From positions 1 through 32,477 of the forward strand of contig RBNJ01000345.1 of assembly GCA_003990765.1 (NCBI GenBank): a stretch of 32,477 bases of DNA, read 5' to 3'. The DNA is from Jimgerdemannia flammicorona (lineage: Eukaryota). Positions 718 through 25,308 of the stretch are shown here, in pieces (position 1 is the first letter of the stretch; each line of letters opens with the position of its first letter). A program made the translations under genes and the position numbers. Below the pieces are notes generated by a model. The model was not told the DNA's origin and did no database searches. It saw only the letters and a program-made list of their open reading frames with translations.

Positions 718-1147
718 GGAGGATTTGGATTGGAGGATTCAGTTGAAGGATTCGGATGAGGATTCGGATTGAAGGATTCGAATTGGAGGATTCGAATTGG
801 AGGATTCAAATTGGAGGATTCGAATTGAGTGATTCGGATTGAGTGATTCAGATTGAGTGATTCAGATTGAGTGATTCGGATTGAGTGGTTCAGATTGGAG
901 TGGTTCGGATGTGTGATTCGGATGGGTGATTCGGATGGGGCGATTCGGATGGGGCGATTCAGATTGAGTGATTCGGATTAAGTGATTTGGATTGGGGTGG
1001 TTCGGATGGGTGATTCGGATGGGGCAATTTGGATGGGGTGATTCGGATTAAATCCGAGTTGATCCGGATGGCTTCGGATTTGAGATTCAAATCAAACTGT
1101 CATGTGACGAATCGAATCCGGATTTGATTCGAATTGACTCATTCGGA
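718..1147. repeat. hAT subterminal tandem repeats (14-15-bp units, GGATTGAGTGATTC-like, core GATTCGGAT)
   Basis: More than 20 head-to-tail units with no unique spacers, next to the terminal sequence. Such arrays are transposase-binding sites in hAT elements. Confidence 0.85.
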
Positions 1148-1153
1148 GCACTA

Positions 1154-1497
1154 CAGGCTAGAGTTCCTTGACTGTTAGGTTATATTATTACTCAGTAGAA
1201 AGAGAGAAGTATGTTGAGTAGATAAGGGGACTATGAGATACTGATATTATGATAGCCAAGAGAATTGACTGTTTGGGGGATAACTTTAATATGATATGAG
1301 ATGGACTGCTGGATAGGACAGATGGAGAGAGAGAGATGATAGATAGGAGTAGAAGAATAGAAGGCTGAGAGAAGATTGAGAAATTGAGCTCACTGGTAGA
1401 TATAGGATGACTTGGATAAAGAGATCATAGAGTCTATACTTACTGAATGATAGGGCTAGGATTGAGAATTTACTGGATATTAACTGCTGAGTACTGT
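1154..1497 (+). mobile_element. Degenerate LINE fragment (APE endonuclease region)
   Basis: Colinear similarity to 14215-14557 (caggctagagttccttgact... vs caggctggagccccttgatt...), including the (GG)DFN- and RID-like motifs. Confidence 0.85.
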
Positions 1498-1909
1498 ATA
1501 TCTATAGAATACTAGTAGTCTCATATCCATTTTGTCTAGATATCTTAATTTGATTTATATAGTTATTCAGATATAATAGTTATTCATTATTCAGCTTGAA
1601 AGTGAGAAATTCATCTTGAATTATCAGCTAATGAGTATCAAGTTATAATGTAGCAGATATATAATTATATTAAGTATATCAGATTTCTATATCTTGAAAA
1701 CTTAATCTTCTTTGACTCTGTAGAGTTCTTAGGATATAAGAGTAGGTGAGTTTGAAGTGTATCTGCCTGTAGGCTTACTAGTTCTCTTACTTTCTCTTTG
1801 CTTTAAACTATTTTGATCAGAGGTTTATTTACTCTAGATACTGGGGATATTTATATAAGTTTGCTAGCTATAAGATGGCTAAGTTATGAGTTACTTTTTC
1901 ACAAGTATT

Positions 1910-1999
1910 AAATCTTTAACATCTGCTAAATCTTTGATAATTGTCAAAACTTTAACATCTGTAAAGAGTTTAACATTTGCTAAAACTTTAATGTTTACA
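1910..1999. repeat. Five degenerate 18-bp tandem repeats (hexapeptide-like)
   Basis: aaatctttaacatctgct / aaatctttgataattgtc / aaaactttaacatctgta / aagagtttaacatttgct / aaaactttaatgtttaca. Confidence 0.7.
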
Positions 2000-2399
2000 A
2001 AATAACTGCTATTTATAAGGCTATACTATATTTGTGAATCAGATTTAGATACTATAATCAAATATCTATTCTTCTGATTCTTGTTCCTAATTTGGATCAA
2101 CTATCACAATATATATCTAAATTTAGAAGTCAAGAAATAGAGAGAAGTAGAGTAAATATATCTGATTTATTTCAAAAGTATTGTTTTATTTTAGTATGAG
2201 TAAAATTGCTATCAGTAATATTACTCACAAATTGTATATCTAAATGATCATCTGATCATATATCCAAATTAAATCAAGCTACTTAAAAAATTATAACCAA
2301 TGTTAAATATCAGTCTTTTTTTTTATTTTCATAGTAAGAATATAGTATAAATAAAACAAAAATAAAATCTATATATATAAGTAAGTAAAGAGATATTCT

Positions 2400-3280
2400 T
2401 TACATTTGTTTCTTTATTTTTTAATATAAAAATATGCTTCTTACTAATACTTAAGCATTCTCAAAACTTAGTATCTCTTTCATTACTAGTATTATTAAGA
2501 TAAAATTACTATACTCTGATCTCTAAGTAGTGTTTAACTCTATGATATCACTAATATCATAAGATCTGGACAGAGATAAGCTACCTTCTTCTCTATTCTC
2601 TCCTCCTCTTTCTTCTCTGCTATCTCTCTCAGATCCTCTAATAGAGCTCTATCATTACTGAGTCCAAAAAGCAACATCTATATTTGTATCTTGAGTGCTA
2701 AGTAAAAAGCCAATCTTGAGTAGCAAAAGGAACTCTTATACTACAGACTGATCAAAGTAATAAGTAATTTCTTAAATCTTTTATAATATATATAGATATA
2801 GAATATAATACAAGTCTGAATTCTCTCTAATAATATGAGATCCTCTCTAATAATATAGAATTCTCTCTAGCAATCTAAATAGTATAAATTTTTTTCAATA
2901 ATATAAGTAATATGAATTCTCTCTAACAGTAATATGAGTAGAAATCCTCTCAGTATATAGATATAATACTTATTTATTATTATATATAATATTATTTTTC
3001 TAATAAAAAATATGAAAACTTTTAACTTATTTATTTTTTCTCAATACTATACTGATTCTTATCTAAAAATCCATTTTAATACTCAAATTATATATTAAAT
3101 ATTATTAGATTATACTTACTTAGAGAGATTATCTCTATTGATTTATCTTTAATCTCTTTAGTTATATATATCTTTCAACTAGAATTAAAATTATAGTTCT
3201 CTCAACAGATGATACCTCTGATGATTCCAAAGAACTTATAGAAGACCTTATAATCATCAATACTGTTTTCATTTGTCAGC
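2400..3280 (-). pseudogene. Heavily decayed, probably intron-containing gene remnant of unknown (TE-associated?) family
   Basis: Minus-strand stretch LTNENSIDDYKVFYKFFGIIRGIIC*ENYNFNSS*KIYITKEIKDKSIEIISL ends at a GTAAGT donor (~3119) and is followed by a TTTTTAG acceptor (~3063). Stops are consistent with C-to-T decay. Family not recognised. Confidence 0.3.
2817..2955. repeat. Degenerate ~20-bp tandem repeat (GAATTCTCTCTAATAATA-like)
   Basis: Units at 2817, 2836, 2857 and 2913 share gaattctctcta/gatcctctcta. Confidence 0.55.
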
Positions 3281-3525
3281 TTTAAGATAGATAAGCAGGA
3301 TAGTATTAGTAGCTTAGAAAGCAGTAACAGTAAGTCCAAATAGAAGTCACACTGTTATAAGAGGTAATGAGTGATAGATATAATAATAAAATCAATAAAG
3401 ATAAGGATATACATATGTATCTAAATATAAGATAGAGTTTATTGATAGATAAGTTTATTTATTTGTTTATTTATTTATTTATTCATTTAAACTTTTTATT
3501 AACATATTTATTTTCTTTTTAAAAA

Positions 3526-4694
3526 AGAGTTATATATAATATAATTGTTACCAACTATTAACAAATAAGATATTGCAATCACTAGTTCTTTTTCTGTATT
3601 CTGCTTAAGTATAAAATCAGAACTATATCACTAGTACTTCATGAAGATAGTTCTATATAAGATTTTAGAGTATACAATCATATCAGCAATCTGAGTATAA
3701 GATGAGATATACTAATGTAATAATAAGCTCAAAAATGTAGAATAGTTATTATAGTACATATAAACTTAGTTTTGCAATTAAGAAGAATTTTATCCAAATT
3801 ATTACAATCTATACTCAGTATTATTACTCATCTCTCTGATTCTACCTCTGGCTATTATATAATAAGAAGCTGCTATCTGTAAATTCTAACCACCTATGTT
3901 ATAAGATAAAACCACTATTGTATTATAAGTATTAAAGAAAGAACCACCATTAGTCTAATAATAGACTTGTTAAGATGGACTCAAAGCTCTCATATAATTA
4001 GTATGGATATTTATTTAGATATATAATAAGGAAGTTATATTAGCTCATGAAGACTAAGTGGAAGTCAATATCTATACTATTGATCCTGGTGTTCAAATCT
4101 TTCTAACATAGTACTCACTTATATAAAGTCATGGTTACTTTGGTTAAAATGATATCTAGTATAGAATCTAGCTACTACTTGTCCTTAATGATCTCATATA
4201 ATATATCTGCCAGATATCTGTATAACAATAAGACAAGTTCTGTCATATATAAGCATATATACTAATGGATATATAATCTGATTAATGAGGTCCATAAGAA
4301 AGCAGTATTGTGGCTCCTGAGAATGTTTGATGTAGTGATTATCCCTTGGTTCAACTCATATTCTATGGCTGAAAAAAAGAAGAAAAAGTTGAACAGATAT
4401 ATGGTACAGAAGATTCTAATATAGAGTTATGGGCACTTCCTCAACTGGCTACTCAGCAAGGCCAAGGAGCTGGGTAAAAAGGTTGTGATTGTATCTGAGG
4501 CATATATATCAAAGACCTGTAGTGCATGTGGGTGGATCAATCACAGCCTGGGTAGTCAAAAGGTTTTCCAATACTGGGATTGCAAATGAGTAGTAGATAT
4601 AGTACCTGAGGAATCTTTCTTTGGGGAATTTTGTTCCTCAAGGAGAGGTCTTTGGGCTTTGCTTGATGAAGCTGCACATAAGTGTACGGGGTGA
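3526..4694 (+). pseudogene. tnpB: Fanzor2 (eukaryotic TnpB-like RNA-guided RuvC nuclease), pseudogenised
   Basis: RVIYN (3526), RuvC-I IDPGVQIFLT (DPG 4082-4090), NLINEVHKKAVLWLLRMFDVVIIP, VIVSEAYISKTCSACG (E 4497, CxxC 4518-4529), KVFQY..C and decayed (N)STxGIFLW/ALLD corresponding to NGARGIFLRALLD. Many stops and small indels. Confidence 0.9.
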
Positions 4695-4764
4695 AAATCA
4701 TATGTTTAGCTAGTTGACTAGTGTTGATTAGTGATAGCTAGTGGTGATCGCTCAGAGCCATCCG
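3526..4764 (+). mobile_element. Fanzor2 / IS607-type TnpB element remnant 1 (5'-truncated, right end preserved)
   Basis: Contains a decayed Fanzor ORF, and its 3' end is homologous to the end of the second element (11428-11502). No TnpA recognised upstream. Confidence 0.85.
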
Positions 4765-4785
4765 ATAATGATCATTTGGTTAAGA
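4673..4785 (+). ncRNA. Putative 3' part of Fanzor omegaRNA scaffold plus flank-derived guide (element 1)
   Basis: Hairpin TGCAC-ATAA-GTGTA (4673-4686), a 31-nt block (4711-4741) and CCATCCG (4758-4764) are shared with element 2. TnpB/Fanzor omegaRNAs come from the element right end, with the guide taken from flanking DNA. The 5' boundary of the RNA cannot be placed. Confidence 0.45.
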
Positions 4786-4862
4786 AATACCATGACAACA
4801 GAGAAAAAAAAGCTATGAAAAGAGAGTTTTTTTTTTTTAAAAAAAGGGATAATAGAACATAC

Positions 4863-5570
4863 GAAAGCATTGTTTGTTCCGTTGACATCGAGCATGTTCC
4901 GCACAAGCTTTTTCGTACCAAAAGATATGATGACAATTTCTTCTAATTGTGGGGTGGCGGAAACGATTTCTGGGTTCGTCCAGTACGATGTCACCAAAAG
5001 ATCATCTTGGTCTCTTCCGTCTGCTATCGTAAGACTGCCGAGGCAAAGGATGGACATGTTCGTCGCATAGGTTGCCTACATGTGTGTGGGGCGGGATAGG
5101 TAATTACACGCGTGAATCGACAGTCTGACCCTATCGCCTGTCAGTCTGTTGCTCGCCTGCCCAATACTTTCCGATATAACGCTCACTCACCCATTCAACG
5201 CGTGGAGGGCCACATTGAGCCTCTTTGCCTGGAGGAGTAAATGCAGGTAGCGCCAGGAATGTGAATGTTGCCAGGTGGTAAAATAGATGTTCCGAACACG
5301 GCAGGTAATTATGCATATATGCATATGTATATAATTCCGTCCCAAGTTTGGGAGGCTCATGGTTGTAAACATTACAGAATTGGGCTATTGTTGCAGGGTG
5401 CACCATCCACCACCACCTACCAGCTGAAATGGTGGCTTGCCGATCCTGTCGATCTTGGAAATCTTTCTGTTGACTGAAGGCCCAGATTGTCGTCTAAGAA
5501 AGATATGACATTACAAGTCTATTCGACCACCACAAGTCCATTGGCAAAATACCCATGCAATTGGGCCCAT
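4863..5570 (-). CDS. Candidate spliced host gene of unknown function, divergent from LETM1, 3'-truncated
   Basis: Phase-compatible GT-AG-bounded exons 5493-5421, 5228-5191 and 5075-4863 (possible first exon 5570-5553) give TTIWAFSQQKDFQDRQDRQATISAGKEAQCGPPRVEWATYATNMSILCLGSLTIADGRDQDDLLVTSYWTNPEIVSATPQLEEIVIISFGTKKLVRNMLDVNGTNNAF. No family recognised. Confidence 0.4.
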
Positions 5571-5695
5571 AGTCCCGGTTTGGGGGCTGTGCGACCAGTG
5601 ACGACTGAGTCAGACAAACGAAAATTAGATCCCGATCAAACCCTTGACATTTATATAAACACCCACCCTCGAGAGAGCCGTAGCCCATTCCTATA

Positions 5696-8882
<3,187 letters not shown>

Positions 8883-9138
8883 ACAATTTTTGGGGAGGGT
8901 AAGGTTAACATAGAACAAAAGTGTAAGTATGGAGCTTAGATTGTACCGTACTGATCTTGAAGAAATGTCTTTTTCTTTGTTCATTGGCATGAATTTCTTG
9001 AAATAAAAAGCTCTTTCCGTTGCTCGAGATTTATACTGTGGTGGCTTAGCATTGCGATTTCTGTTGCCGTATGATGTCACCCACAGCACGCAACCGTAAA
9101 CAGTGGACCTCTACCCCAAACCCTCCGGAAACACCGAA

Positions 9139-11162
9139 ATGTCCTTGCTTGCAACCCGAGAACGCCGCCCAAATGCCGGTAGTCGGTGAGCCCCGTCGTG
9201 TTAAATTGCCTTGGTTCACCACGCCGAGTTCACTTGAGCACATTGACGAACATTCCGCCCTCATGGTTGCAGAATGCGAGCCTTGCTCGAGGAGGAGCTA
9301 GAGGTGGAGGAGCTGTTTCAAGAGGTGGACGATGATGTCGAATTTGAGGTGCAAGGTATAATTTTACGTCTCTTGAGGGCATTTGACTGTTCGCGAAGGA
9401 AAATTGGCTCACCACGGTCATTAACCCATTCGTACAGGTGAGGACGAAGATATCGTCGATTCTGACTTTGACGTGAGCTCTGGAGATGAAGAGGCGGGCA
9501 AAGAAGCTGAAGGCGCGGCTGAAGATCAAGCCATCCATGTGGAGGAGAAAAAGGTGCGTAAATCGCGGTAGAGTGTTCATTATACATATGTCAGTCCCTA
9601 AAAATTCATTTTCCTTTCTACCAGAAACGCAAAGTAGTAGTGCCTGTAATAAAGAAGCGGCCGCTTCCAAAACGCCGGACGCAACCAGAGGCGCCCTCGT
9701 CAACGACAACTTCTATCCCAACATCGTCGTCGATGTCCACGCCAGCAAAAAGGCAAAGAACAGAAAGACCATCAGTAGCTCCTACAAGTGAGTCAGTTTT
9801 TTTTAAATATATATATTAAAATCGAGGAGTTTGTTCCTTTGCTGTGGGCTCGGCATATTCAGCTTGCCACCTCTATTGCCCGATTCTACAAAAGCCACTC
9901 CTGCCACACGCAAGTCTTCTCGCGCCACAACCGTCAAGAACCGTGAATGGGTCGAGGAGCAACTGAAAGAGTATGAAATCAAGAGGGTAACTTTTGTTCC
10001 GAGTACGATCTAAAATTGATTTTCTGGCTATTCCCGAATGTCGATTGTGTTATATCTCTCGACCATTATTTCTAAACAGGCCGCCCAACCCAAACGTGAC
10101 CGACCTACAATTCGGGCGCTCACACAACAAGAGCTCCTCGCCGAAGCTGCAATCACGGAGGAGCAAAACAAGGCGTCCCTCGAAACATGGCAACAAATGG
10201 AAGCCGACCGGATGCAAAAGGCCAAAAAGAAAACCGACACGGGCATTATCGGCCCCTTCGTCCGGTTCTACTCGTTCATGGATGGCGACGAATCCAAACG
10301 GCCAAAGGGACGCAAGGCATTGGTGATCGAATATAAGCCCGGCACGGGCAATGTGGTCAGACAGATTGAAGATGAGAAGGTGAAGCAGTGGATAGCGATG
10401 CAGGAGGCCGAGGAATGCGACGTCGTTGGGCGGAACCTGGTCAGCTTCGAAGGTTACGATGGCGACGAGGCCGACGACGGGGGACGTAGTGGCGGGGCGG
10501 CGTACGACGGGAACGGCGGCGGCGTGCATAGGGGAGAGAACGACCTAGATGAGGAAGATCTCGAAACCGCGGACTTGATCCCAATGCTTAAGAACTGGAT
10601 CGAGCGGCCTGCGCGACCGCGGAAACCGCTCATGTGCCCGATTACGGGGCTCCCTGCTCGGTACAAGGACCCCAAGACGGGCGTCCCTTACGCGAACAAA
10701 GATGCCTACCAGATCATCCAGCAGATTGTGGGGCAAGAGTTCGTATGGTCAAGCGTGCTCGGGGCCTACGTGCAGAGCGAGAACCAACAGTTGCCGCGGG
10801 GTGCGCCGGAGGGCTGGGCGAGAGCTGGGGCAGGGAAGGTGGTGGATGAGGAGGATTGGCCTGAAGGTGAGGGAGATGATGTGCCAGGGTGGTTGAGGGA
10901 GAAGAGGAGGATGGAGCGGGAGGCCAAGGATCAGAAAGAGAAGGAGCGGGTGAAGGAAAAGGACACGAAACGGTCAAGGAGTGAGGGTGAGGAGGTTGGG
11001 AAGAAAGATGGGGAAGGAGAGCAGCCGGATAACGGGAAACGCGAAGAGTCGGGCAAGGTTGAGGGTTCTGCAGGGGACGGATTAAACAAGAAGATAATCG
11101 AGGGAAGAGAGAGCAGGAGGAGGGGCTTGCGGAATAGCGTTACGATTATTGTACAGGAGTAA
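9139..11162 (+). CDS. VPS72: Vps72/YL1 (SWR1/SRCAP H2A.Z-deposition subunit), 6 exons
   Basis: Exons 9139-9185, 9273-9355, 9438-9553, 9625-9787, ~9895-9986, 10080-11162. Motifs: RERRPNAGSRMRALL, DIVDSDFD, RKSSRATTV, LTQQELLAEAAITEEQN, and YL1-C CPITGLPARYKDPKTGVPYA. Confidence 0.93.
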
Positions 11163-11407
11163 AGATACGGTGGCAGGCCACCTCAGCTATGTGTTTGTCA
11201 ATACATTCTATAGATACACGAGCTCGCGTATTGGGCTTTTCTACATACGACTTTTACATGCAATCGATTTGCTGTGATTGGGTTTGTTTGTGTCCATCTC
11301 CAAGTTTGCGATTGGTCGTGGCATCTGCGATTGAACGGCAAGTTTGTTCCAACCAAAGACAAATCGTATATATGCCACCCTCACCAAATCTACATCCAAA
11401 TATTTTT

Positions 11408-11502
11408 AAGCCACCAAAATTCCTTAGCGGATGGGTTGAATCGGCCAACTATCGCTACACAACACTATGTAACTATAGTCAGCAAATTGGCACAGTTGTG
11501 CC
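11408..11502 (-). ncRNA. Putative 3' part of Fanzor omegaRNA scaffold plus flank-derived guide (element 2)
   Basis: Minus strand reads GGCAC-AACT-GTGCC hairpin (11502-11489), a 31-nt block (11475-11445, 23/31 identical to 4711-4741), then CCATCCG (11434-11428). Confidence 0.45.
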
Positions 11503-11995
11503 CTTAAACTGAAGTCATAACCACAGCCCCATCAAGCAATGTCTGGATAAATATCCCACAAGCTCTGTTTATATCTCTTGTTGATAACGAGATTGTAGCC
11601 ACCACATTTGAGTGCTGAGATTATACTTGTACATATTATAGAAAAGAATAGATTAGTTTTTTAAAAAGATAATATTATATCTTAATCATTTTATAGCTGC
11701 TATAGATTTTACTGATACATATATGATTCTGATATTGATATAATCACTATCTTGTTATGCTCTTTCTCTTTATATTTGAGATACTTATATATAAAACCTC
11801 ATATACTTATATTATTATCTAACATACTGTTTAGTTATTGAGCCTTCTCTTTATATAATATCAAGATATCATCAATTTACTATATATTATTATTCAATGT
11901 TATCCATATACCTCTCTCCACTACAATTTACATTATACAAACTTTTAACAATACTTTTGACATAGTTTTTAAAGTAAAGGTAATAATAATATAGC
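11428..11995 (-). pseudogene. tnpB: Fanzor2/TnpB element 2, C-terminal segment and right end
   Basis: Minus-strand translation: KRRLNN*TVC*III*VY (KRRLN.TVRQMMTWAH), KIVIISISESY..SKIYSSY (SE.YTSKTCSSC), KCGGYNLVIN.. and NRACGIFIQTLLDGAVVMTSV* (NGARGIFIRALLDG). Stop at 11506-11504. Confidence 0.85.
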
Positions 11996-12049
11996 AATTA
12001 ACAAGAGATTAGAGGAGTATGCTAGGTAGGACAACTCCAGTGCATTTGA

Positions 12050-13900
12050 CTAGCAGTATGTGGGGAGGAGTTATGGCTTGAAGGGAAGTCTGTTGAGCTC
12101 ACTGGCTAGAGAATATAGAAGAGAAGAAGGTAGTGCTGAAAGATAGAAGACTAGAAGAGTGAGCTTTGCTGATAAGATCAAGGCTGGGTACTTATCAATA
12201 GGTCTGGAGACCTGGCTGTAAGGTGATAAGAAGAAGAGAAGAGCTACAGAGTCTAGTAGAGAGGCTTCTGAGAGTAGTGGTAGTAAGACTAGGAGAGTTA
12301 TATGTAGCTGGAGAGAGTGGGACTACTATAGAGGAGAGACTGCTAATTTAGAAAAAAAAATCCAGATATGATGACTGATGATAAGGCTGAACAGGGGCAG
12401 AACATGAGGCCTAAAGACCTGGCTGATGGTGTAATAGGTCTGGTAGCAGTACTGTTACTTAAGAAATTGGTATCTAAATTCACTATCACATCATACTTCT
12501 AAGGCTTAGCAGTTATAGTATAGATAGTTCTGGAACCACTGGCCCAGAAGGTGAAAGGGACTACCTCAGTGAAGTTCATAAAAGGTCTGAAGAGGGTTGA
12601 GGTGGGGTTCAAGAAGAAGAAGTGAATATTGGAGATATTAGAGAAAAGAGTGATAGTAGGAGAGATAGCAATTTCTATAGCTTAGTGCTTATACTGAACC
12701 CTCAGATAGTATAGCTAGTAGTGGCAAATATCTTGATAGTAAAGAAGGAGGTGGCCAGGGACTGATTATCAATATCATCAAGGAGTATAGAGATGTGGTA
12801 AATATTGGTTTCTGAGTCTGAGAGGATATAGAGTTCAGAACTGAAGATATAGATATTAGGGTGAGGCTAGAAGACAAAGAGAATACTGGAAAGAGAAGAG
12901 ATTGACTAGTAGTACTTAAGTGGAGACCAGTGGAGTATAAGGTCTTGAGGGTCAAGAAGATATCAGAGGAGGAAAAGAACTTACTGGAGGTATTAAAGAA
13001 CCTGACCAGAGCTGTTAAGAAGAGAAGATTAGTCTGAAAGGAGTATAAGACCAAGATAGTGGTAGAGATAGTAAATGGTAAGCAAGTGAGACTAGATCAG
13101 ACTGCCTGAGAGAGAGTATAAGAGAGGTAATATCAGAAGAATTTATAGACAAAGTTGGGAGAGTAGCTAGAGGAGGGGAAAGCTACTAATAGAGTCAGAT
13201 CAAGGACCAGTGCTTGAGCAGAAGAGGAGGAGATAGTAGTGAAGGTGATCTTGGCAGAAGAGAGAGACCCAGTGTAAGATATAGTGATTGAGGATGAGAT
13301 AATGATAGAGGTGATTTGAGTTCAGTATGATATATCTATAGAGGAAAGGAGAAATGATAAGCTACAGAATATACTAGAGGAGAACTGGGATGAGTTAGTG
13401 AGGGTGGATGCTGATGATGGTTGAGAGGCTGGAGGGCAGGAGGTGGTCCAAGAAGTAGATGAGACTATAGATAAGAAGAGATGACTATAGAAGATATTGA
13501 TGAATATCATGACAGATAAGTTAAGTGAGATAGACTTTAGAGTGATCAGTAAGAGACACTAGAGAGAGGTTCTGTGAGAAGAAGAGGTAGTATAGAAGAT
13601 TAGAGATGAGCTGATGGTAGGTCTATTAGAGGTAGAGGAGTATGGAGTAGATGGCAACAGAGAGGTGATACTTCTGAGAATTATGAATAACTGTACAATC
13701 TATCTGTGGGACCCTAGAAAGAAGTTGGTGAAGTGGCAGGTAGTGTATGAGAAATACTAGTCTAATATAGAGGCTGTGAATGGTGAGGACTATTGGGAGA
13801 TCTTGGTAGCTCTGGATGCTCAGCAGGGAGAGGCTAAGAAGCTTAAAGCAGAGAGGAATCTGAATGTCACTGGAGATACAGTGAGCATGAAACTGTAGAG
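12050..13900 (+). pseudogene. LINE ORF1 remnant
   Basis: Purine-rich, coding-like strand upstream of ORF2 with many TAG/TGA decay stops. Assigned by position, with no diagnostic motif firmly recognised. Confidence 0.5.
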
Positions 13901-13931
13901 TAGGTGACCTTCTTTATAACAATTATTCAAT

Positions 13932-16900
13932 ATGAATAGTATAACTAGAATTTTATCTTTAAACATCAATGAGTCATGGAGTATAATGAGGTATCAGAAT
14001 ATTTTTAGCTAGTTAAAGGGGCTAGATGTAGATCTGTTTCTACTACAGGATATTGGATGTAATGTAGACTTAAATGTGCTAGACTGAACAAGAGAATAGG
14101 GTAGAGCAGCTGTTTGGTAGAGCTGGGTGGACATTTTGGTTAAGAAGGATAAAGGAGATATTAGTGATATTGAATATTGGAGAGACAGGGTGATATGGGG
14201 GGTATGGCAGAGACCAGGCTGGAGCCCCTTGATTATTGGGTCTTGTTATTGTCTAGTGGAAAGAGGAGAGTAAGTAGAATGGATAAGAGAACTTTGAGAT
14301 ACAGAGATACTGGTAGAGGTGGAAATTGACTGTTTAGGCAGAGACTTTAATATAATTTGAGATAGGCTACTAGACAGAACTGATAGAGAGAGAGAAATGA
14401 CTAGTAGGAGTAGAGGTATTGAAGATTGAGAGGAGATTAAAAGATTGAGCTCTTTGGTAGATACTGGGTAACTTGGATGAGGGGATCATAGAATCTATAC
14501 TCACTAGATAGTAGAGTTGAGCTTGAGAATTGACTGGATCTTAACTGCAAAGTGCTGAAGTGAGGATGTCTAGAGTCCTCTGGAGACAATTTGGTACCTA
14601 TGGTCTGACCATTGGAGTCTGCTTGGTTGTGGGAGGTTTGAGAGAAGTAGAGAGAGACCTGGACATTAGTACCTCAATATCTCATTGCTGGGAGAGTTCT
14701 CATTGTGAGATGTATAGATGGTGGACATAAGTGTCAGGATTCTTGGCTGAAGAGTGAGGGGACTGGAGATCAGGAACTGATAGAGCTATTTGAAATCAGA
14801 TACTCAGAAGTTCTGGGGAGAGATAGGGAAGATGAGGGGCAATAAGAGAAGGAAGTAACTAAGATGGGCCTCTTAGAGATTGGAGAAGCTACTGATGGTC
14901 TGGGCCAATCTTCTGAACAATGGGGAGAAGGAAGACTAGAGGGTTCATCAGGCCTGGCTTGAGGTGGAGGAGCTAAAAAGAATGCTAAAGTAGGAAGAAG
15001 ACTTATAAATAAAGAGTATAGTAGTCCAGTTGAGATAGCAGAGCATAGAAGAGGGAGAGTAGCCCACAAAGTTCTTGTTAAGACTTCTTTAAGTAAGGAG
15101 GGTGAGACAATAGTGAGAGATAGTATTGTATAAGGCAGGAGAGATAGTGGTTGAAACTCTGGAGATCCTAGACCAGTTGAGCTCAAGGTGAGAACATTTA
15201 TGAAATAAGAAGAAGAGTGAGAAAGATGATCTGGACATTGAATGATATCTAGAGGACTGGTATCCAGACTCAGCAGAGGGCCTAGGGGACTTTAGAGCTT
15301 CTATCCAGAGAGGGAATATTTGTAGAGTTTTGGTAATAACTAGTCTTGGGAAAGCTTCTGGAGAGGATAGGCTGTCTTGAGATTTCTGGAAGAAGATGGT
15401 GAGTGTGGAATTGACTCTAGAGGAAATAATGTAAATGTGCAATAAGATTATTAGATCAGAAGAGTGAATTGGGAAACAGAGACTAGAATTGATAGCTCTG
15501 TTGTATAAGAACAAGAGAAGACAAGAGGAATGGAAAAATTAGAGGCTGATCATACTTTTGGATATAGATTATAAGCTGGTTATGAAGATACTGATAGGAA
15601 GGCTGCAAGGAGTGGTATAGCAGATATTGGGGGCTGAATAGAGAGACTTTATTAGGAGATATTTAATAAGAGATAAGACAGCTTAGGTGTATAGAGTTAT
15701 CAAAGAAGCATGGGCTATAGGGATCAATAATTGGCTAGTCTTTCTGAACCAGAAGAAGGCATATAAAGGGTCTAGCAAGTATGGCTGATAGGGGTGTTGA
15801 AGTATGTAGAGATTCTCTTAGAGTTCTGAAGATCATTGATCAGGCTACTAGAGGAAAGTCAGGCAGTGATATTAGTAAATAGATATAGAGGGGTTTTATT
15901 TTCTCTAGGCAGAGAAGTGCTATAAGAAAATCTGCTATCACTAATCCTCTATACCCTCTCTCTAGAGTCTCTACTGGATAGGATTAGGTATAAGGTAAGA
16001 TGGTTAAATATTCTTAGAGTGAACTAGAAGATAGAAGTCTTTGCAATAATATGGTGGTTAGGCTGGGCTCTGTAGAAGATATGTATGACTGTACTGAAGA
16101 GAGCTATGGAATGGTATGAGGAATATATCAGTACTAAGCTGAACTAGCATAAGTATGAGACCCTGGTATTAGAAGGAGAAATAGTAGAGAGAGATATGAT
16201 TGGATCAGTAGTTTTAGCAGAAGAGGTAGTCTACTATCTAGAAATCTACTTCTCAGTATATAGGTCTCTGCTACCTCAAGAATAGTGAGAGCAGTGATTA
16301 GTAGAGTGAGGAAATACTCTCCTGGGGTGGAGTGACTGATACATCTCTCTAGCTAAAAGAGTAATAGTGCTGAATGTATACTGAATACCCAAGCTATAGT
16401 ATCTGAAGTATCACTTGGATTTTCTGGTATAGATGGTCAAGAGACTATTGAAGATGGTCAAGATCTGAATATGGGTAGAATAGTGGAGTCAGATAGGCTG
16501 AGAGGTGATACATAACATTGCTAGTAAAATAGAAGAGACTAAATTTGGTAGACTCTGTCAAGTATCTACATTACTTGAGAGCATGGTAGTTGAAGTAAGC
16601 TAGTATATTGAGGGGCTGTGAGTAGATGCCACTTATGCAGAGAGTATGAGAGATGCAGTTTTCTCTCTATAGTATATCTGGTGATCTGTTTTCTCTAGTA
16701 GTATTAGAGAGATACCAGAAGATGTACTTTAGGGATTTCTGGTAGAGAGTGATTGATGGTATATATTGAATTGATATCAGATAGTAGAGCAATAAAGAAG
16801 AGACTAACTGAGGACCCAGGATATAGAGGTGGGATTACCTTCTGCTAGAAGGTACACTGATGGATAATTTTAGTCTAAAGGATAGTATGAAGTATCTTTG

Positions 16901-17643
16901 GAAGTATGGGTAAGATATATAGTCTATGGCTTAGTAAGAGATAGAGATCAATGAGAAGTGAGATTAGAATAAAGTATAGTTATAGAGCCAGTAGGTGGCA
17001 TAATAGATTCTCTCCAAGTTTTGGATAATATAGTGAATGCTTTTATAGCAAAATATGATGTTGAACTATCAGTCAGAATATTAGATAGAGGGAGAAATAT
17101 TGGAGTATGAAGAGTGCTTTGATGTCAGACAGAAGAGTGAGATAGTGCAGATCTCAGAGTATTGGTTAGAGAAGTGTGAAATAATGAAAGACTTTTGGAG
17201 AGTAATTAAGGGCCTTTTGGAGATCTGTCCACCAGGACTTATAGTGGGAAGAGATAGGGGGAGCTACAGAGGAGACTAGTGAGAGAGGTTAGAGATAAGT
17301 GGTTAACTCTTGGGTGGATGCTAGCTATTTGGGTTAAATCTGCCAAATATTGACTATATGTATATATGTATTCAAGAAGAATTAGCAGTTAGTACTTGAG
17401 TTATAGGTCATAAGATGAGAGTGGATGATATTGGATCTATTGAATAACTGGTGGAAGGGGTGGGGCTTTAGAGGAGGGCCCTATAGAAGACTGGTGGAAA
17501 AAATATATAGATAGAGTAGAAGGAGAATTGGAGTGACTGGGGGAATAGTGGTGTTCTGGAGAGATGGAGAAGAGGGAGAGGAGGGCTCTAGGAGAATTAG
17601 ATAAAAGAGAGAGTGGGGGTCTGTAATAGTACATATAACATAG
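13932..17643 (+). pseudogene. LINE ORF2 (APE endonuclease, reverse transcriptase, C-terminal Cys/His knuckle)
   Basis: RILSLNIN (~13950), LFLLQD, CLGRDFN (~14330), RIDWIL, WSDH (~14600), KASGEDRL (~15350), WKN*RLIILLDIDYK (~15530), FLNQKKAY (~15740), REVL*ENLLSLILY (GVRQGDPLSP-like, ~15910), C...C...FW (~17115-17200). Confidence 0.9.
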
Positions 17644-17799
17644 ACTAGTATTCAGGATAATAAAGTGGAAATCTAAGTGACTATAATATATATATATATA
17701 TTATTATTCAAAATTTAAGAAAGAGTAAATCAATAAAAACTATATATAATAAGTATTAATAGTAGTAAAAGTAATAGAGGGTTTTTTTAAAAGAATATA

Positions 17800-18054
17800 A
17801 TATATATTAAAATTTATTAATTATAGTACTATATATCTTCTTATATACTTTATTAATAAGATAGTAGATTCTTTACTAAAGTCTTATTTATACTCTTTTT
17901 GTTAAGTTATACTTATAAGCAAATATATAATTATCTTTGAGATCATCAAGTTTAGAGTAAGATATAAATAGATAATCTAATTAATATTATAATTATTAAT
18001 CTTACTATCTTTAAGATTTAGAGATTATTAAGTAAGAAATTTATATATGTATAC
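17800..18054 (-). pseudogene. tnpB: Fanzor2/TnpB element 2, middle segment (between the LINE and the gypsy LTR)
   Basis: Minus strand: V...FLT**SL (VRTFLTW.SP), INNYNIN*II.L, LDDL, RV*IRL**RIYYLINKVYKK (RIxxLIDEVHKK), VL*L..FN. Colinear with 4091-4330 of element 1. Confidence 0.75.
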
Positions 18055-19605
18055 TGTCATGTAGTAGTCACTGAGTCCTTCAAATATATTAGATTCTCTT
18101 CAAGGTATATCTCTTAAACTAACTCAAGTTTGTTATAAGCAAGTTCTTATTAGAGTACCTTTCCAAGGTCTTATAGTCCTCAAACTTCTTATCTTTAAAC
18201 TATCTTATTATCTCTTTGCTTGCTTGTAAGGAATTGTATATGTAAACCAGAACTGACTTTATTTCAGAGGAAATAAGAGGGGTATTTATACAAAATATAA
18301 TTCAATAGTTGCTAAGATATAAAGCTAAATATAAATTCCAATAACTAAAATAAAATGCCAGAACATGGAGAACTGCTAAGTTTAAGTATTGGCACAGATG
18401 GTTATATAGATCCAGGATACTGGTATAATTTCAGTGATACAGGAAAATAGTGCTGGAATAATTCTGAGTCACATCAAAATGCTAGTAGTGGAACAGCTGT
18501 TATACAGAAAAAGAGTGCTGGCATAATTTGGTGTAACCAAGGAACTTAGAGCAGAATGTTCAAGACCATAGGGGCTTCATCCTCATCTGAGGTCAGAATG
18601 TCTTTGAAAGAGATGAGGTCTGTAAATTTGTCATTGTCACATAGGTTGCACATTTCATATATATCGCACAGGATGACATCATCACTAATGATGTCATCAC
18701 ATTCAGTGGCAGCAGAAACAAGGAGGTCTGGAGCTCTCCAGTCTATGAGATTCTCTTTCATGAAATAGGAAACAAATGTGGGATCTTGAGGAGGTCTAAC
18801 CTGGATGCTTAGGCCTTGGAATACTGAGATCAATCCTTACAGGAATTGGTCTGAGTTGTCCTGGAGGATGGGATGCCAGAAGTCTTCTACTTCATCACTA
18901 TTGAGAGTAATAGTGGACTGGGCTTCTGTAGCCACTCTGGCTTCTAATATATTGATATGGTGGGCTGACAGATCTCTAAAATCTGAGACTCTAACATACT
19001 CCAAGTTGAGGATTAACCATGGTACATGCCTGAAGATCTGGTGAATCTTCTTAGCTATCCTTATCTCATATATATCCATGAGAATGATATCTTGTAATTC
19101 TTGAGGGCTGGTCTGTGGGAACTCCTGGCAGAGGAGGTTTCCTATTTTGTACTCCTGCCATATTTGGAGGTATTTGGTAGATCCTTGTTTCCATTTTATA
19201 GTAGTAGAGAATGTAATGATAAGAGTCACCAGTATACAGATTAACACTAGGAGTCCTTCTTGTATAGATCTTCATAACTCTTCTGATGTCTTGAAACATC
19301 CTTTCTTTGACTGAGGTGTCTTGGTAGTTCCTTGATCTTGAGGTTTGGCAAGCAGCAGGCATTTCATTTGTGGTAAGTCTTTGAGCTATTTTGGGATTGG
19401 TAGATCTTATTGAGTTGCTGCTACTGTGGTTCCTTGATCCTTCTTTTATATTTCTTAAGATACTCATACTGTGGTCACAATAACTCACAGTTGGTCATCA
19501 TTACTTATCTTGTATGCTATATAATCTTCTTGTGCTTCAATCTAGTGACTTGTAAGGAAAGGCTGTCTCCTATACTGATGTTATCATTCTGGGATCACCA
19601 TTACA
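18055..19605 (-). repeat. 3' LTR of element A (1551 bp)
   Basis: Plus-strand termini TGTCAT...ATTACA. Preceded on the minus strand by the purine tract AGAAGGAAGA. TATAAATA (18290-18283) and AATAAA (18263-18258) on the minus strand. Colinear with the second copy. Confidence 0.85.
18546..19488 (-). pseudogene. ORF of unknown function inside the LTR U3 region (~270-315 aa)
   Basis: Track ORFs 19488-19066, 19247-18837 and 18833-18546 join into one frame once the 8 bp present in the other LTR (32136-32143) are restored and one TAA is read through. Confidence 0.65.
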
Positions 19606-19615
19606 TCTTCCTTCT
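19606..19615 (-). other. Polypurine tract of element A
   Basis: AGAAGGAAGA directly before TGTAAT on the minus strand. Confidence 0.7.
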
Positions 19616-19651
19616 GAATAAGGATCTTCTTGAGTGTCCTTATTCATTAGT

Positions 19652-19958
19652 TCAGTTCTGAAAAATTTGCTGATCCCATAACCTCTGGCAAGGGGTCAAA
19701 AAGTGGTATTTATGGGCTAGCATCTTCTCTATATATTTTGGCATAATGGTGAAGGGGTCACTCCCTTCATATAGAGTAAGGGCCTGATTCTAATCTTGAC
19801 TAATCAGTTGATGGTTTGAACTCCTCTGGCTTTGAAAGTCTTATGGATAAGTAGTTGCAGGTGCTGTATTCCTTAGAGAATAGTCCAGACAGATATCCTG
19901 CTGGTCACAGGATATGCTGTTACAATTTGCAGACTAGAACCTTACAGGTGGTCATCAT
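19652..19958 (-). pseudogene. Small accessory ORF between integrase and PPT (element A)
   Basis: AGYLSGLF...EEFKP../..LYEGSDPFTIMPKYIEKMLAHKYHF with one frameshift. Similar to 30755-31018. May instead be a C-terminal extension of integrase. Confidence 0.5.
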
Positions 19959-21167
19959 ATTTTGCTTCTCTTGTATAGGTTCATGGTACTTCTTGAGTCT
20001 GTTCTTATATACCATGGTAGGTAGTATAGTCTCTGAGATTTTTCTAAGCCAGAAGGTAGTTCTCTTGATATCTTGTATATAGAAGGGTCTTTTCCATTTG
20101 GGCTCCAGTTTTCACAACTATAAGGTTTCTATCATATTTTGATACAGTAGGACCTTTTCTTCAATTTGGATGGGTTCTAGAGTCTTGTGATTCTTTTCTG
20201 CATTCTTCTTTATCAGCGCTTGTGACTTGATGATGTAATCTTCAGCCTTCTTCCTGATTTGGTATAGCCTCCAGATTTCTGCATCAACCTGTCTCCAAGT
20301 TAGGTCTAGATTTGTAGCTAAGGTTCTATCAGAATCTTCTTCTCCAAAGAGCAGTTCTCTTGGGGTAAAGTGTATACTCTGTGACCATATGTATCATAGG
20401 ACAGAGAGGGTGGTTGGGAGGGAGTTATCCCAATTCTCATATGTATCTGAGATCTTTGCCAGGATGTTCTTGAGGGTCTTGTTGGTTCTCTCTATCTGTC
20501 CATTTCCTTAAGAGTGGTATATAGTAGTTTTGATGTGTTGAATCTTATATTTCTGATACATTATCTTATAGAATCCATTGACAAATTCTGTGCCATGGTC
20601 TGTGGTAATTTGTTTCAGTGTCTTGTAGTGGCAGATGATTTCTTAGTACAGGAAGTTGGCTATAGAGAGGGCATTGGCTTCTTATAATGCTCCTGCTTCT
20701 ATCTATTTGGTAAAGAGGTCTATAATAACTATAATATAGCAGTTTCCTAATAGTGTTACTAGTAGTGGCTCAATGATATCTATTACAATGTAGTGGAAGG
20801 GGATAGGCTCAATTCTTGATGACCTAAGTGCCTGGTCTTGCTGATCTTATCTCTGTTTTTGGTACTTGTCACACCCTTTGACAAATTGGCACAGGTCTTT
20901 TTCCATTTTGGGCCACCACATGGTTCTTCTTGTCTTGTTATATATGTTAGCTCCTCCTAGGTGTCCTTGTTTATGTACTTCCTTCATTACTTGATACTTT
21001 TTGTGTTCAGGTATTACAAGCTTTCCTCCTTTTCTGAGTATGGTATTGTCTAGTTCAAACTGTTTCCAAGTTCAGTTGATAATAGTGATTGTCCAGAGTT
21101 TGAGGTAGTTGGACATATTCTGCTGCCCAAGGTAGCTGATTAATCCATAGTATAACTCCTTATTCAT
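19920..21167 (-). pseudogene. Integrase of element A, in a separate frame from RT-RNase H
   Basis: MNKELYYGLISYL.., HHCC region (VHKQGHLGG..WWPKM..CDKYQ), IVIDII, ITTDHGTEF, YHS*GNGQIERTN, KLEPKWK.PF. Confidence 0.88.
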
Positions 21168-24100
21168 GTTGAATAGTCTTGATGAGAGTATTTTGAGGTA
21201 TCCTTGAGAGTGTATCAGTATTGATATTGGTTCTTCCTAAGTAGTGCTTGACAGTACAGTCATACTCTTACAGCTTTTAGATCCATCTGGTATATATTCC
21301 TTTGGAGTTCAGAGTGTGGAATAGCCAGACAAGAGCAGAATAGTCTGTTTGAATAGTGAAGTATTTCCCAGCTAGATAGTAGTGGAACTTGTCTATGGCC
21401 CAAACTACTGCTAAACATTCAAGCTTGCATGACTCATAGTTCTGATCTGCTCTGTAGATACCTCAGCTTATATAGGAGATGACATATTCATGTCTATCTT
21501 TCTTCTGAGCTAGGACTGCTCCAAGTCCTATGGTACTTGCATCTGTCTACAGGATGAACTCTAGGTTCCAATCTGGTCTTCTAAGGATAGGTACTTGGGT
21601 CAATCTGGTCTTAAGTTTATTGAAGGTTTCTTGGTATTTCTTGGTCCATTCAAATTTGGTTTCCTTCTTCAGTAGCTTATAGATAGGTACTGTAATTTTG
21701 GAGTATCCTTTGATAAATCTTCTGTAGTAGCTGGCCAGTCCAAGGAAGGCATAGACTTCTGTGGTTGTTCTGGGTCTCAGATAGGCTGCAATAGCCTCAA
21801 TCTTCATGAAGTTTGTATAGATTCTGGTCTGATTGATGAGGTGTCCTAGGTAGGTAATTTCCTGAGCTATAAACTTACATTTCTTGAGCTTGATATAGAG
21901 GCCATACTCCTTGAGCTTCTTGAGAGCTAGCTATATATGGTTGATATGTTCCTGTGTAGTATTGCTGAAGATGATCACATTATTAACATAGATAAAGAGC
22001 CATTTTCCAATCTCATTGCTAAAAACTCTGTTCATCATTCACTGAAAACTTGCTAGAGTATTGTACATTCCAAATGGCATTTGCAGGTAGATATAAGTGG
22101 CATCAGGTGTGATGAAGGCTGATTTCTCACTGGTATCTTGAGTGAGACCAATCTGATGGAAGTCTGAGAACAGATCCAAGGTAGTGTAGTATTTGGCTTC
22201 ACTTCTAAGAGTGGTAAGGATTTTTTAAATATTTGGTAAGAGCTGCCTATCCTTCTTAGTGATTGCATTGAGCTTCCTATAGTTAATGTAGAGTCTTAGT
22301 ACAAACTCTCCAGACTTACTTCTTTTCTTTGGGGTGAGGACAATAGGTGAAGTCCAGGGACTGATAGCTTGCTTGATGATTCTGGCTTCTTCTATTTCCT
22401 TGAGTTCTGCTCATAGCCATTCTTTGTAGGCAGGTGGTATAGGTCTGGCTTTCTGATAGATGGGCTTGATATCACTAGTGTCAACTTTGTAGTAGTACTT
22501 GGGTTCTTGATTGTAGATATCCCTGAAGTCTGTAGTAAGTACTCCTTCATTCTGATACAGGATCTTGAGAAGTTGTTCTTTCAGGGGAAAGTTTTCTCCA
22601 ATGATATATATGTGCTTGTTCTGGTCCTTGTCTTTCTTGTACTCAAGTTTGGTAATCTTGATAGCAGTATAGACACTTTTTCCAGTAGATCCAAAGCCTT
22701 GTTCTCTTCTCAGTCTTGATGAGTTTGATGGCTTCAGTGATCTTGGGCTTCTTGATTTCATAGATCAGCATCTGGTTAATCCTGTCATACTTCTTGACTT
22801 CAAATAGGGTGGTGGAGTTGTGATTCCTAACTATGAGGAAGATCTCACCAGTGTAATCAGGGTTAATTACTCCTCCTTCAACTGAGATTTCACTTTTGGC
22901 CAGACTGCTCCTGATCTTGATAATTCTGATATGGTTCTCTGGCAGCTTGACTCCAATTTCAGTATCAAGTAGGGTGGTGGTCTGTGGTTTAAGGGTAGCA
23001 TCTTGAATGCTGGCAAGGTCTATTCCTATGGCTTCTTCAGTCTTATATTCTGGGATCTTAGCTTCAGGGTAAAACTTCTTGACCTTGAGGGTGATGTCTG
23101 GTTCTTATTCCTCCTCATTATCACTGTTAGCTTGAAGCTTGGGGGGCTGGTCATCTTCTTCAGCTTTCCTTTTTGCTTCAGTGGCTTCTTGCTCATACTT
23201 CTGTTGACAGATTTTCCTGGCTTCATTGATACAGGACCAGCAGTCATTTAGGTGTTCAGAGCAGTACATCCTAGTACCATAGGGGTATCTTCCTTGAGAG
23301 GCATAGTCATCAATGATCTTGGTATACTACTGCTCATCTGTGAGCTTAGGTGTCTTGTTCTTATTCTTATTCTTATTCATCTAGTGCATGAAGACTTCTG
23401 TATCCTCTTCATCTCCTTCCTCCATATTTGGTAAAACTCTCTTGTAGATATTGATGGAGACTCATACCTTTCTTCCTCTATAATTGATCTGCATCTTCTG
23501 GGTATTGAGGTCAATGATGGCCTTGGCCTTGTGAAGCTATTGGTTGTTAATGAGAATATCATAGTTAGTGGTACTTGTAACAATTATATCTACTGGGATA
23601 GTAGCTCCTCCTATCTTGATGGAGACTTCTCAGATTTTGCCAAGGGGGGTAGCTCATGTATTATCTACTGTGACATAGACCATCTTGGTGGACTCTTTAA
23701 TATTCCAGCCTAGGCAGTCAATTGCCTTCTTGCTCATAAGGCATCCTCTAGCATTGGTATCAATGATGGCATTAAAGATACAATCTTCAATCTGACATGA
23801 GATATAGGCTGATGTCTTGTACTGGTCTTTAGATTCTTTATCTGAGTTTTTGGATTCTTCCTGTACATTGTGAGCTTCTACAATTTTGTACTCTTGATTC
23901 TTGGTAGTAGTTGCAAGTCCTACTCTTAACTACTATCTGAAGGCAGGGACTTCAGCTAGCTGTCCAAAAGTAGCATTGACCTTCTGTTCTTTGAGGTCCT
24001 TATGGATATTATACTGGTAGATCTTGGTCTTATGCAGCTTCTGTTTTTTCTTGCTTTTCCTTCCTTCTGAGACTGGAGTAGTGTCTTTAATGATTTGGCA

Positions 24101-25279
24101 GGCAGCTTCATCTAACTCCATGTCTTGATCAATCTTCTTGGGTTGGGTCTTACTTTGGATAGTGATAGCTGGGGTCTTCTTTAGTCTTCCAACTGGCTTA
24201 CTATTGCTCTTCTTATCATAAGGCTTGGACTGGGTTCTGGTATCTTTAGTAGTAGGGTAGAATTCAAGCTTCTTGTAGTATTTTTCATCATCAGTATCAC
24301 TAATCTCCTCAATGACTACTGCATTGGTTTGTTCTCTGGTTCTGCTAGCATTGCTTGGTTGGGCTTTGCATCTTATTTTGATTATGCAATTCTTTGCATA
24401 GTGGCCTTCTTCTCTATATCTGAAGCATGTGATATTACATTCTTCTGTAATAGCTGCAAATCTCTGCACTAGTCTCCTGTTGGTGCTTTGGACTTCTCTA
24501 ACAATATTACCAAGGTGTGCAGTCATCTCAGTGAACTGCTTGGCAAGTTTCTCCACTGGATCAGCTTTGGTTGCCTTGGAGGTAGGTGGGAATAGTTATC
24601 TGTTTACAACTGTGGTGAGTATAATACTAGTTGGCTTTGATGGCTCTATCTTGATATCAGTTATTTTCTCTATTAAGTATTCAGTATGGTATCTGGCAGT
24701 CCAATATCTCTGTGTAAAGACTACTTTCTGATCAAGGGTCAGTGCAGCTGGAGTAGACCAGATTACTAGGGTAATTTCAGAGTGAACTTCTTTGAGGAAG
24801 GTTGAATCTGCTATTTGTTCCTTGAGGGCATTATTGTAGCCAGTCAAGACATCTGATGACAGATTCAGATATAGAATGAGTTGGGATCTTCACTGAGTTC
24901 CTGGTAGATAGTATTGAGTTGATCCTTAAGAGCTTGCTTGATCTCTTCAGTATAGTATATTGTTCTGAGAAAGGCCTTCATGTTGGCAAGTTTGGCTGTA
25001 CTATTATCAGCAATAGTGGCTATATTGAACTTGTCTCTGGTAGATCCTCTGAGGCTAACTGATAGAAGGACCAATTGTATATCTACACCAAGGGTTCATA
25101 TAGTGGCAAATTGTTCAAAGTCTTTAATGAAGATCAGGATTGACTCTTCAGTAGTATATCCATAGAATGTGGGAAGACACATTTCTATCTTATCTTGAAT
25201 TCTTGCAGGGGTGACTCTTGTAGTCAGAGTAGTTATTGTAGTGGTTGTTTATTTTTCAGCTTAAAAGTGAGGGATTCAT
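21160..25279 (-). pseudogene. pol: gag-protease-dUTPase-RT-RNase H of element A
   Basis: Zinc knuckle CFRYREEGHYAKNC (~24390-24430), AIIDTNA (protease, ~23760), SPWTSPIV, LYINYRKLN, IYVNN (YVDD, ~21985), AFLGLASYYRRFI, TDAS..GLGAVL, KLECLAVVWA, DTLSR. Confidence 0.92.
22681..23090 (-). pseudogene. dut: dUTPase domain of element A (between PR and RT)
   Basis: LKVKKFYPEAKIPEYKTEEAIGIDL..IRSSLA..GGVINPDYTGEI..DRINQM..REQGFGSTG, corresponding to trimeric dUTPase motifs I-V. Confidence 0.9.
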
Positions 25280-25305: not shown

Positions 25306-25308
25306 AGT

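Follow-up and report, generated by a model that had tools for sequence, protein, structure and literature searches.

Two decayed Fanzor2-type elements with right ends facing a LETM1-VPS72 gene island in Jimgerdemannia flammicorona

Why should two remnants of Fanzor genes, the eukaryotic relatives of the RNA-guided nuclease TnpB, lie at the two edges of one short gene island with their right ends pointing into it? The question is raised by a stretch of 32,477 nucleotides (nt) of Jimgerdemannia flammicorona (contig RBNJ01000345.1, positions 1 to 32,477, hereafter the window), in which a plus-strand remnant (element 1) ends at 4764 and a minus-strand remnant (element 2) ends at 11428, on either side of a LETM1-like and a VPS72/YL1-like gene. 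Both right ends point to the island (n=2), and since they do, the guides of any right-end RNA would come from the island edges, as a preliminary description of this locus had pointed out. With a probability of roughly 70%, we consider the best explanation of the whole to be that these are two dead Fanzor2-type copies, that a mutation process resembling repeat-induced point mutation (RIP) tapers off at their edges, and that their convergence is coincidental.

Element 1 is a decayed, intron-less copy on the plus strand (about 3714-4764), recognized by Pfam, phmmer, tblastn and a family hidden Markov model (HMM). When the frame from 3300 was searched with stops read as X, the TnpB/Fanzor superfamily domain PF07282 (Cas12f1-like TNB) matched about 4428-4589 with an E-value of 2.5e-9 and 37.6 bits, above the gathering cut-off of 26.3. 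A phmmer search of 1.84 billion representatives with 4185-4682 retrieved 2920 proteins at E<=1e-3 (top E 7.3e-24, 51% identity), and the best 150 of these 2920 served as follow-up queries. Aligned to the window with tblastn, they gave 157 high-scoring segment pairs, 156 of them on the plus strand of 3600-4700, and residues 100-390 of P0001, a relative of 410 residues, aligned with 3750-4598. The family HMM, built from 41 of the 150 proteins (those of 340-480 amino acids), matched 4113-4598 (E 2.3e-41) and, in another frame, 4052-4207 (E 2e-5). The remnant had been described as spanning 3526-4764; its Fanzor identity and its end at 4764 hold, while homology can be traced only to about 3714-3750 and not as far as 3526.

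The catalytic motifs are recognizable and broken. The RuvC-I DPG motif (4082-4090) lies in a frame that differs from the rest, indicating a frameshift. The alternative RuvC-II glutamate is found in SEAYISKTCSAC (4494-4529), six residues ahead of the first CxxC of the zinc ribbon, and a proline, in ‘VVIIPWF’, occupies the position where most TnpBs have glutamate. The RuvC-III region (SRYST*GIFLWGIL, 4592-4633) has lost bases relative to DRDVNGARGIFLRGIL in L001, a near-intact relative from a metagenome. Element 1 is dead: its main frame has 9 stops in 283 codons, and two or more frameshifts interrupt the copy. Its absence from the track of open reading frames (ORFs), as originally noted, agrees with the lack of any ORF of at least 80 amino acids within 977-4752. 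A DPG motif combined with an alternative glutamate six residues before the first CxxC is given as the fingerprint shared by Fanzors and the bacterial proteins nearest to them (PMC10711439). Element 1 and L001 both carry this fingerprint; the DPG site of element 2 fell at the junction with a long terminal repeat (LTR) element and is lost.

The right end at 4764 is fixed by other copies of the family. We drew on contigs from X1 and X2, two runs of one organism, which represent RNA because they are spliced at GT..AG sites. Two contigs of X1 and two of X2 match the window to 4764 and then differ from the window and from one another; a further RNA contig shows a short deletion, then CCATCCG and then a third flank. 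A scan of metagenomes for the last 21 bases of the element recovered one contig only, L001 (1093 nt), which terminates exactly at CCATCCG. From the divergence of the contigs and the end of L001, we therefore conclude that the repeat unit ends at 4764, as had been proposed, that other copies are transcribed and that their right flanks differ. The flanks following CCATCCG in the contigs of other copies contain CpG dinucleotides. Deep contigs match the window solely at 4690-4764, with depths of 917 (X1) and 3874 (X2) against 134 and 142 for LETM1. In element 1 the non-coding right-end tail (4667-4764, plus strand) ends in CCATCCG and keeps CpGs at 4687, 4749 and 4763.

Element 2 lies on the minus strand in two pieces. 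Its 3' piece (11428-11897) contains a RuvC-III motif (11513-11581), a stop codon (11504-11506) and a 76-nt tail (11428-11503) that, like the tail of element 1, ends in CCATCCG; further upstream, a RuvC-II-like ‘NKIVIISISESY’ (11721-11798, minus strand) is matched by P0135 at E 0.079. The 5' piece (17712-18054, minus strand) corresponds to positions 174-256 of the family HMM and is cut beside the RuvC-I motif by an LTR element that starts at 18055, which explains the outer coordinate of 18054 given previously. The shared CCATCCG, the homology of the tails and the C-terminal motif show that a minus-strand Fanzor remnant does end at 11428, on weaker evidence than for element 1. The expectation that a profile search would assign both remnants to TnpB/Fanzor was thus borne out for element 1 by PF07282; for element 2, Pfam made no such assignment (three minus frames of 11300-13400, nothing at E<=1), and the assignment comes from the RuvC-III motif and colinear weak HMM matches.

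Several signals at element 2 agree in position. The C-terminus (RD.NGA.GIF..LLDGA) of 14 of the 150 tblastn queries aligns to 11578-11510, with a top E-value of 6.2e-4. An HMM of the C-terminus, built from the 104 of the 150 proteins that hold the RD.NGA.GIF motif, has the motif of element 2 as its sole match in the six-frame window, at 1.5 bits, a score reached by 2 of 150 block-shuffled windows. The tails of elements 1 and 2 align at a score of 236, compared with 148 +/- 18 for shuffles (maximum 209 of 200); a stringent DNA alignment of the whole elements gave a low-complexity match only, and the homology required softer scoring on the tails. This tail alignment drifts on for about 25 nt beyond both ends, which we read as chance or weak target similarity because the RNA contigs of element 1-type copies diverge at 4764. 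In the uncut window, a family-HMM match at 17920-17795 scores 4.3 bits, a value that none of 150 shuffled windows equalled. Once the intervening long interspersed nuclear element (LINE) is excised, family-HMM positions 174-210 match 18042-17932 (-1.4 bits), 215-256 match 17923-17795 (10.4 bits) and 341-363 match 11581-11513, all of them colinear and on the minus strand.

We also aligned the rejoined element 2 to the spliced L001 with transition-tolerant scoring. The alignment runs from 18047 to 11428 with a score of 278, compared with 223 +/- 13 for shuffles (maximum 254 of 100), and its 829 columns comprise 378 identities, 174 C>T or G>A differences, 190 other mismatches and 87 gaps. From this composition, we place element 2 in a much more distant or older subfamily than element 1. 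In a window-wide scan with the same scoring, the two halves of element 2 ranked 4th and 5th of 126 window-strands, just after three that cover element 1.

L001 serves as the yardstick for the decay of element 1. It has two GT..AG introns, of 92 and 77 nt; once these are removed, a frame of 274 amino acids, open at the contig start, fits the published pattern DPG-x(120,160)-E-x6-CxxC-x(12,18)-CxxC-x(4,8)-D and is matched by the family HMM with an E-value of 1.4e-100. In L001, 98 nt separate the stop codon from the CCATCCG end. The alignment of L001 (1-1093, minus strand) with element 1 spans 3863-4764. Of the 164 substitutions from L001 to element 1, 138 are C>T or G>A, the others being 8 T>C, 4 A>G and 14 transversions. 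By context, the sites changed in 3863-4686 amount to 52/79 at CpG, 55/134 at CpA, 23/105 at CpC and 6/87 at CpT; in the tail (4687-4764), the corresponding counts are 0/4, 2/13, 0/7 and 0/11. Along 3863-4762, the CpA sites changed per 150-nt bin number 15/27, 14/22, 16/29, 6/26, 4/21 and 2/22.

We infer from this pattern a RIP-like, repeat-directed C-to-T process that weakens over the last ~500 nt before the repeat edge. The hallmarks compared with RIP are a dominance of C>T and G>A, a dinucleotide preference of CpG > CpA > CpC > CpT, and CpG that is near-absent in repeats and normal in genes. RIP relics border gene islands in filamentous fungi, and the present locus resembles such relics in its C>T and G>A changes in repeats, its AT enrichment, its sharp contrast with single-copy genes and its decay toward the repeat edge. 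It differs from them in that CpG is mutated at least as strongly as CpA and in that the LTR elements here seem to be affected at CpG alone, so that methylation-driven deamination may contribute.

The CpG profile of the window follows the repeats. Observed against expected CpG counts are 0/63.8 in 1251-4685, 455/463.5 in 4686-11578 and 6/724.7 in 11579-32477, and background-level CpG is also present in 1-1144. The outermost CpGs of the island are those at 4687, 77 nt within element 1, and at 11588, 160 nt within element 2, in agreement with the report of depletion near each Fanzor end. A third CpG border, at 1144/1154, adjoins the edge of a LINE fragment and is without a Fanzor. The CpG-normal stretch at 500-1144 contains a minisatellite (708-938 against 844-1071, 71%) and a (TG/CA)-rich run, and stops at 1144, 10 nt before the start of the CpG-free LINE fragment (1154-1496).

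Both genes of the island are on the plus strand and are covered by spliced RNA contigs with GT..AG introns. The LETM1-like gene (transcribed span 5482-8946) encodes LETM1_RBD (PF07766) in three exons, with E-values down to 8.9e-24, and the VPS72/YL1-like gene (transcribed span 9116-11222) encodes YL1 (PF05764, E 5.9e-15) and YL1_C (PF08265, E 7.2e-17). Domains, spliced contigs and CpG counts thus concur with the initial view of a CpG-normal island holding LETM1 and VPS72 between the two elements. Element 1 ends 718 nt upstream of the LETM1 transcript, and element 2 ends 206 nt past the end of the VPS72 transcript. A third run, X3, is a root metatranscriptome with a minor share of the island's genes and supports no habitat claim.

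Given these observations, we propose that two separate copies of a Fanzor2-type family may have inserted on either side of the single-copy LETM1-VPS72 segment; the two copies are now dead. Repeat-directed C-to-T mutation would then have erased the CpGs of the repeats and brought their GC content down to 20-30%, with an intensity that probably drops over the final few hundred bases, sparing the right-end tails (77 and 160 nt) with their CpGs. On this proposal, the onset of CpG loss falls 77 nt inside element 1 because mutation intensity tapers toward the repeat edge, and the ‘CpG island’ seems to start just inside each element because mutation fades before that edge is reached. Element 2 was later interrupted by a LINE and cut short by an LTR retrotransposon, so that the nest grew outward from old gene-proximal insertions. 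That Fanzor came first and later elements nested in or against it, as had been suggested, holds for element 2, where a LINE with a 17-base-pair (bp) target duplication lies inside the element and an LTR element truncates it; for element 1, an equivalent order relative to its surroundings may be supposed. The convergent orientation would most simply be coincidence plus detection bias: because the conserved C-terminal half adjoins the right end, only copies with the right end inward stay readable in the lightly mutated zone.

Five points weigh against this explanation. L001 is only a stand-in for the ancestor and may come from another strain or species, so the direction of change is presumptive. 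The LINE fragment at 1154 is CpG-free up to its edge and both Fanzor tails are spared, which shows that the taper is not uniform. Protein-level support for element 2 is modest, with a 1.5-bit motif (2/150 shuffles) and no Pfam match. If the family is rare in the genome, chance would seldom place two differing copies, each pointing inward, at the two edges of a single 6.7-kb island. Finally, tails of other copies of the family are abundant in RNA, so the family cannot be called inert and its right ends may have a role. We nevertheless retain two relics with a coincidental orientation as the explanation: nothing in the analysis points to an effect of the inward right ends on the genes, and absence of function is presumed for the two copies.

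An insertion preference would make the arrangement meaningful: the family would land beside genes with its right end geneward, by way of its transposase or of guide-directed homing, and retrotransposons would pile on later. Such a preference would account for the right end being inward in both copies, for element 2 predating the LINE and LTR insertions, and for the CpG-containing flanks of other transcribed copies, which place those copies outside mutated repeat DNA. We regard it as unlikely, since there are two copies only, the ends face unlike parts of genes (a 5' side at 718 nt and a 3' side at 206 nt), the RNA data reveal transcribed copies only, and detectability favours precisely this orientation. 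A stronger version, in which the family is alive in the host, its right-end RNA is among the abundant transcripts, the edges of gene islands are preferred sites, with the guide-giving end toward the genes, and old copies seed repeat nests, appears quite unlikely. If it were true, the two copies would mark an oriented, gene-proximal targeting rule of a eukaryotic RNA-guided nuclease transposon. The arrangement bears on the site choice of such transposons only if right ends systematically face genes genome-wide.

The introns of L001 raise another possibility, namely that elements 1 and 2 arose not by DNA transposition but as retrocopies, with the LINE machinery acting on spliced Fanzor transcripts. 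Both introns are missing from element 1 to the base, in a copy otherwise close to L001 (differences other than C>T or G>A at 26 of ~870 aligned positions); element 2 continues without a break where intron 1 would lie, and the window does contain a LINE whose target duplication is intact. RNA-mediated copying seems improbable nonetheless. No poly(A) was found after 4764 or 11428, and around element 1 the only candidate target duplications are TTTTTAAAAAA (3516, 4834) and TATGAAAA (3011, 4814), one a low-complexity 11-mer and the other an 8-mer, at chance level for AT-rich DNA. Moreover, P0001 and P0002, which are more distant relatives, show no break at either intron position in tblastn, so the lack of introns may be ancestral and those of L001 gained later; Fanzor genes are reported to capture introns (PMC10530073). 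The missing introns therefore admit two readings, gain in the L001 lineage or retrocopying of the window copies.

A further alternative is that element 2 is AT-rich debris with chance matches to Fanzors. The absence of a Pfam match, the motif score of just 1.5 bits and the 190 other mismatches per 829 columns against L001 would suit debris. We find it very improbable, as four independent lines of evidence coincide in place and order: the C-terminal motif found by 14 of the 150 queries, the tail homology with the CCATCCG end (matched in 0/200 shuffles), the 10.4 bits at HMM positions 215-256, where 0/150 shuffled windows attain even 4.3 bits, and the colinear alignment across the excised LINE (matched in 0/100 shuffles).

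The right-end tails are predicted to fold more stably than shuffles. The segment 4560-4764 is predicted to fold at -71.8 kcal/mol (z -4.49), a stability reached by 0 of 200 shuffles, and the minus strand of 11428-11620 at -61.4 kcal/mol (z -3.36), reached by 1 of 200. A consensus of three tail sequences shows changes on both sides in 7 of 39 pairs, too few sequences to weigh. An Rfam-type search of 4200-5000 found no known RNA family, its one match (E 0.85) falling far under the gathering score. No RNA contigs were found on 11427-12028, among contigs at least 90% like the window, a restriction that makes this result uninformative for the end of element 2.

The idea that the right ends act as chromatin boundaries, with the tails or their RNA halting a spread of methylation or mutation into the genes, fits the CpGs retained in both tails and absent from the bodies as well as the stable folds, and is barely credible in view of a CpG border that lies inside the elements, a C>T and G>A gradient over ~500 nt rather than a step at the tail, the Fanzor-free border at 1144/1154, and two ends that face different gene parts (718 nt upstream of the LETM1 transcript and 206 nt past the VPS72 transcript). 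We know of no mechanism that ties ends of TnpB-family elements to chromatin boundaries, although no literature search was aimed at this point.

With the two elements read as relics, their nearest known counterparts can be considered. Ten relatives were tested for domains, and TNB was found in 10/10, OrfB_IS605 in 9/10 and HTH_OrfB_IS605 in 7/10. Of the solved structures, 9B0L comes closest, with E-values of 9.7e-24 when P0001 is the query and 1.5e-7 when the window fragment is; among 18 PDB matches at E<=0.01, it is the sole Fanzor entry recognized. 9B0L is ApmFz2 (PMC11832414). The setting is eukaryotic: the remnants lie 206-718 nt from genes with GT..AG-spliced RNA, and L001 holds two GT..AG introns. 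Fanzor2 is the label that these comparisons favour, as a probable assignment. Fz2 occurs broadly in fungi according to PMC10432273, and because it is so widespread there, a Fanzor2-type element in this genome is not new.

The elements resemble the Fanzor2 of IS607-type elements, such as ApmFz2 of Acanthamoeba polyphaga mimivirus (PMC11832414, PMC3627910, PMC10530073), in their TnpB-type RuvC and zinc ribbon with DPG and the alternative glutamate. As in the ApmFz2 type, relatives carry HTH_OrfB_IS605 and no terminal inverted repeat was found in element 1: with transitions allowed, a search for an inverted copy of its right end recovered the end itself and a single further match, which is at chance level (two or more matches arise in 65 of 100 shuffles). 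Unlike ApmFz2, elements 1 and 2 are dead relics on a chromosome of a fungus-like genome, and the intact relative L001 carries two spliceosomal-type introns. Unlike in IS607-type systems, a serine recombinase was not detected near element 1, where six frames of 1500-3750 gave no Pfam family at E<=0.1 in DNA (20-27% GC) that is possibly too decayed for recognition.

For Fanzor1 of S. punctatus, PMC10432273 describes a 75-nt region that follows the stop codon, is conserved and gives rise to an RNA of 88-90 nt that extends 14-15 nt into the flank. The present family is similar in having a conserved ~75-100 nt from the stop to the right end, in the presence of this region in RNA and in contigs that enter differing flanks. 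It belongs to another Fanzor clade, and the evidence here consists of assembled contigs, which cannot show RNA ends or a discrete small RNA.

The finding is thus one of annotation: two decayed Fanzor2-type relics, a nested LINE and an LTR nest surround two housekeeping genes. It may be used as a worked example, as the near-intact relative permits a base-by-base mutation spectrum and a view of its fall-off at the repeat edge. A RIP-like defence coexists here with a probable Fanzor2 family that has introns and whose right ends are transcribed.

The LINE-like retrotransposon within element 2 (11898-17694, plus strand) is bounded by an exact 17-bp target-site duplication, TATATATTATTATTCAA, with its left copy at 11881-11897 and its right copy at 17695-17711, and has endonuclease motifs, read by eye, and a (TA)n tail. 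It is 74% identical to the fragment at 1154-1496. Pfam gave no match on the plus strand of 11600-14900, and its sole match on that of 14500-17800 was RVT_1 at E 0.035, under the cut-off; the LINE call is made because of the eye-read motifs, the repeat with 1154-1496 and the target duplication. On the plus strand of the LINE (~5.8 kb), G is about three times as frequent as C (GC skew ~+0.5), which suggests C-to-T mutation chiefly on one strand.

A few observations concern element 1 and its surroundings. A 31-nt ‘insertion’ of element 1 relative to element 2 was considered as a separate feature and rejected, as it is also found in L001 and is hence part of the subfamily's C-terminus. The last ~20 codons of the gene in this subfamily (GIFLRGILFLEGRSSGFA in L001; window 4600-4660, L001:95-160) overlap a near-perfect 16-bp RNA hairpin, a segment that the subfamily of element 2 lacks. 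A single X2 contig of low depth (2.5) skips 89 nt at 4514-4604 with CT..AC ends and may represent an antisense splice or a deletion variant of another copy. To the left of element 1, the 2.2 kb at 1500-3700 (20-27% GC) contain no recognizable protein family in six frames and are possibly the decayed upstream part of the transposon of element 1, or older debris.

To the right of 18055 lies a nest of LTR retrotransposons, in which inspection by eye, without Pfam backing, picked out motifs of a Gypsy-type reverse transcriptase, an RNase H and an integrase. The LTR pairs are 18055-18542/25309-25798 and 25797-26253/31027-31493, at 89% identity. The LTR-internal-LTR-internal order (18055-25798, followed by 31491-32465, which shares 85% identity with 18536-19502) points to a tandem array, with a second LTR element (25797-31493) inserted at the junction of LTR and internal region. 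Across this nest (18055-32477), CpG alone seems depleted, with TpA/ApT at ~0.8-1.0 and (CpA+TpG)/(ApC+GpT) at 1.2-1.7.

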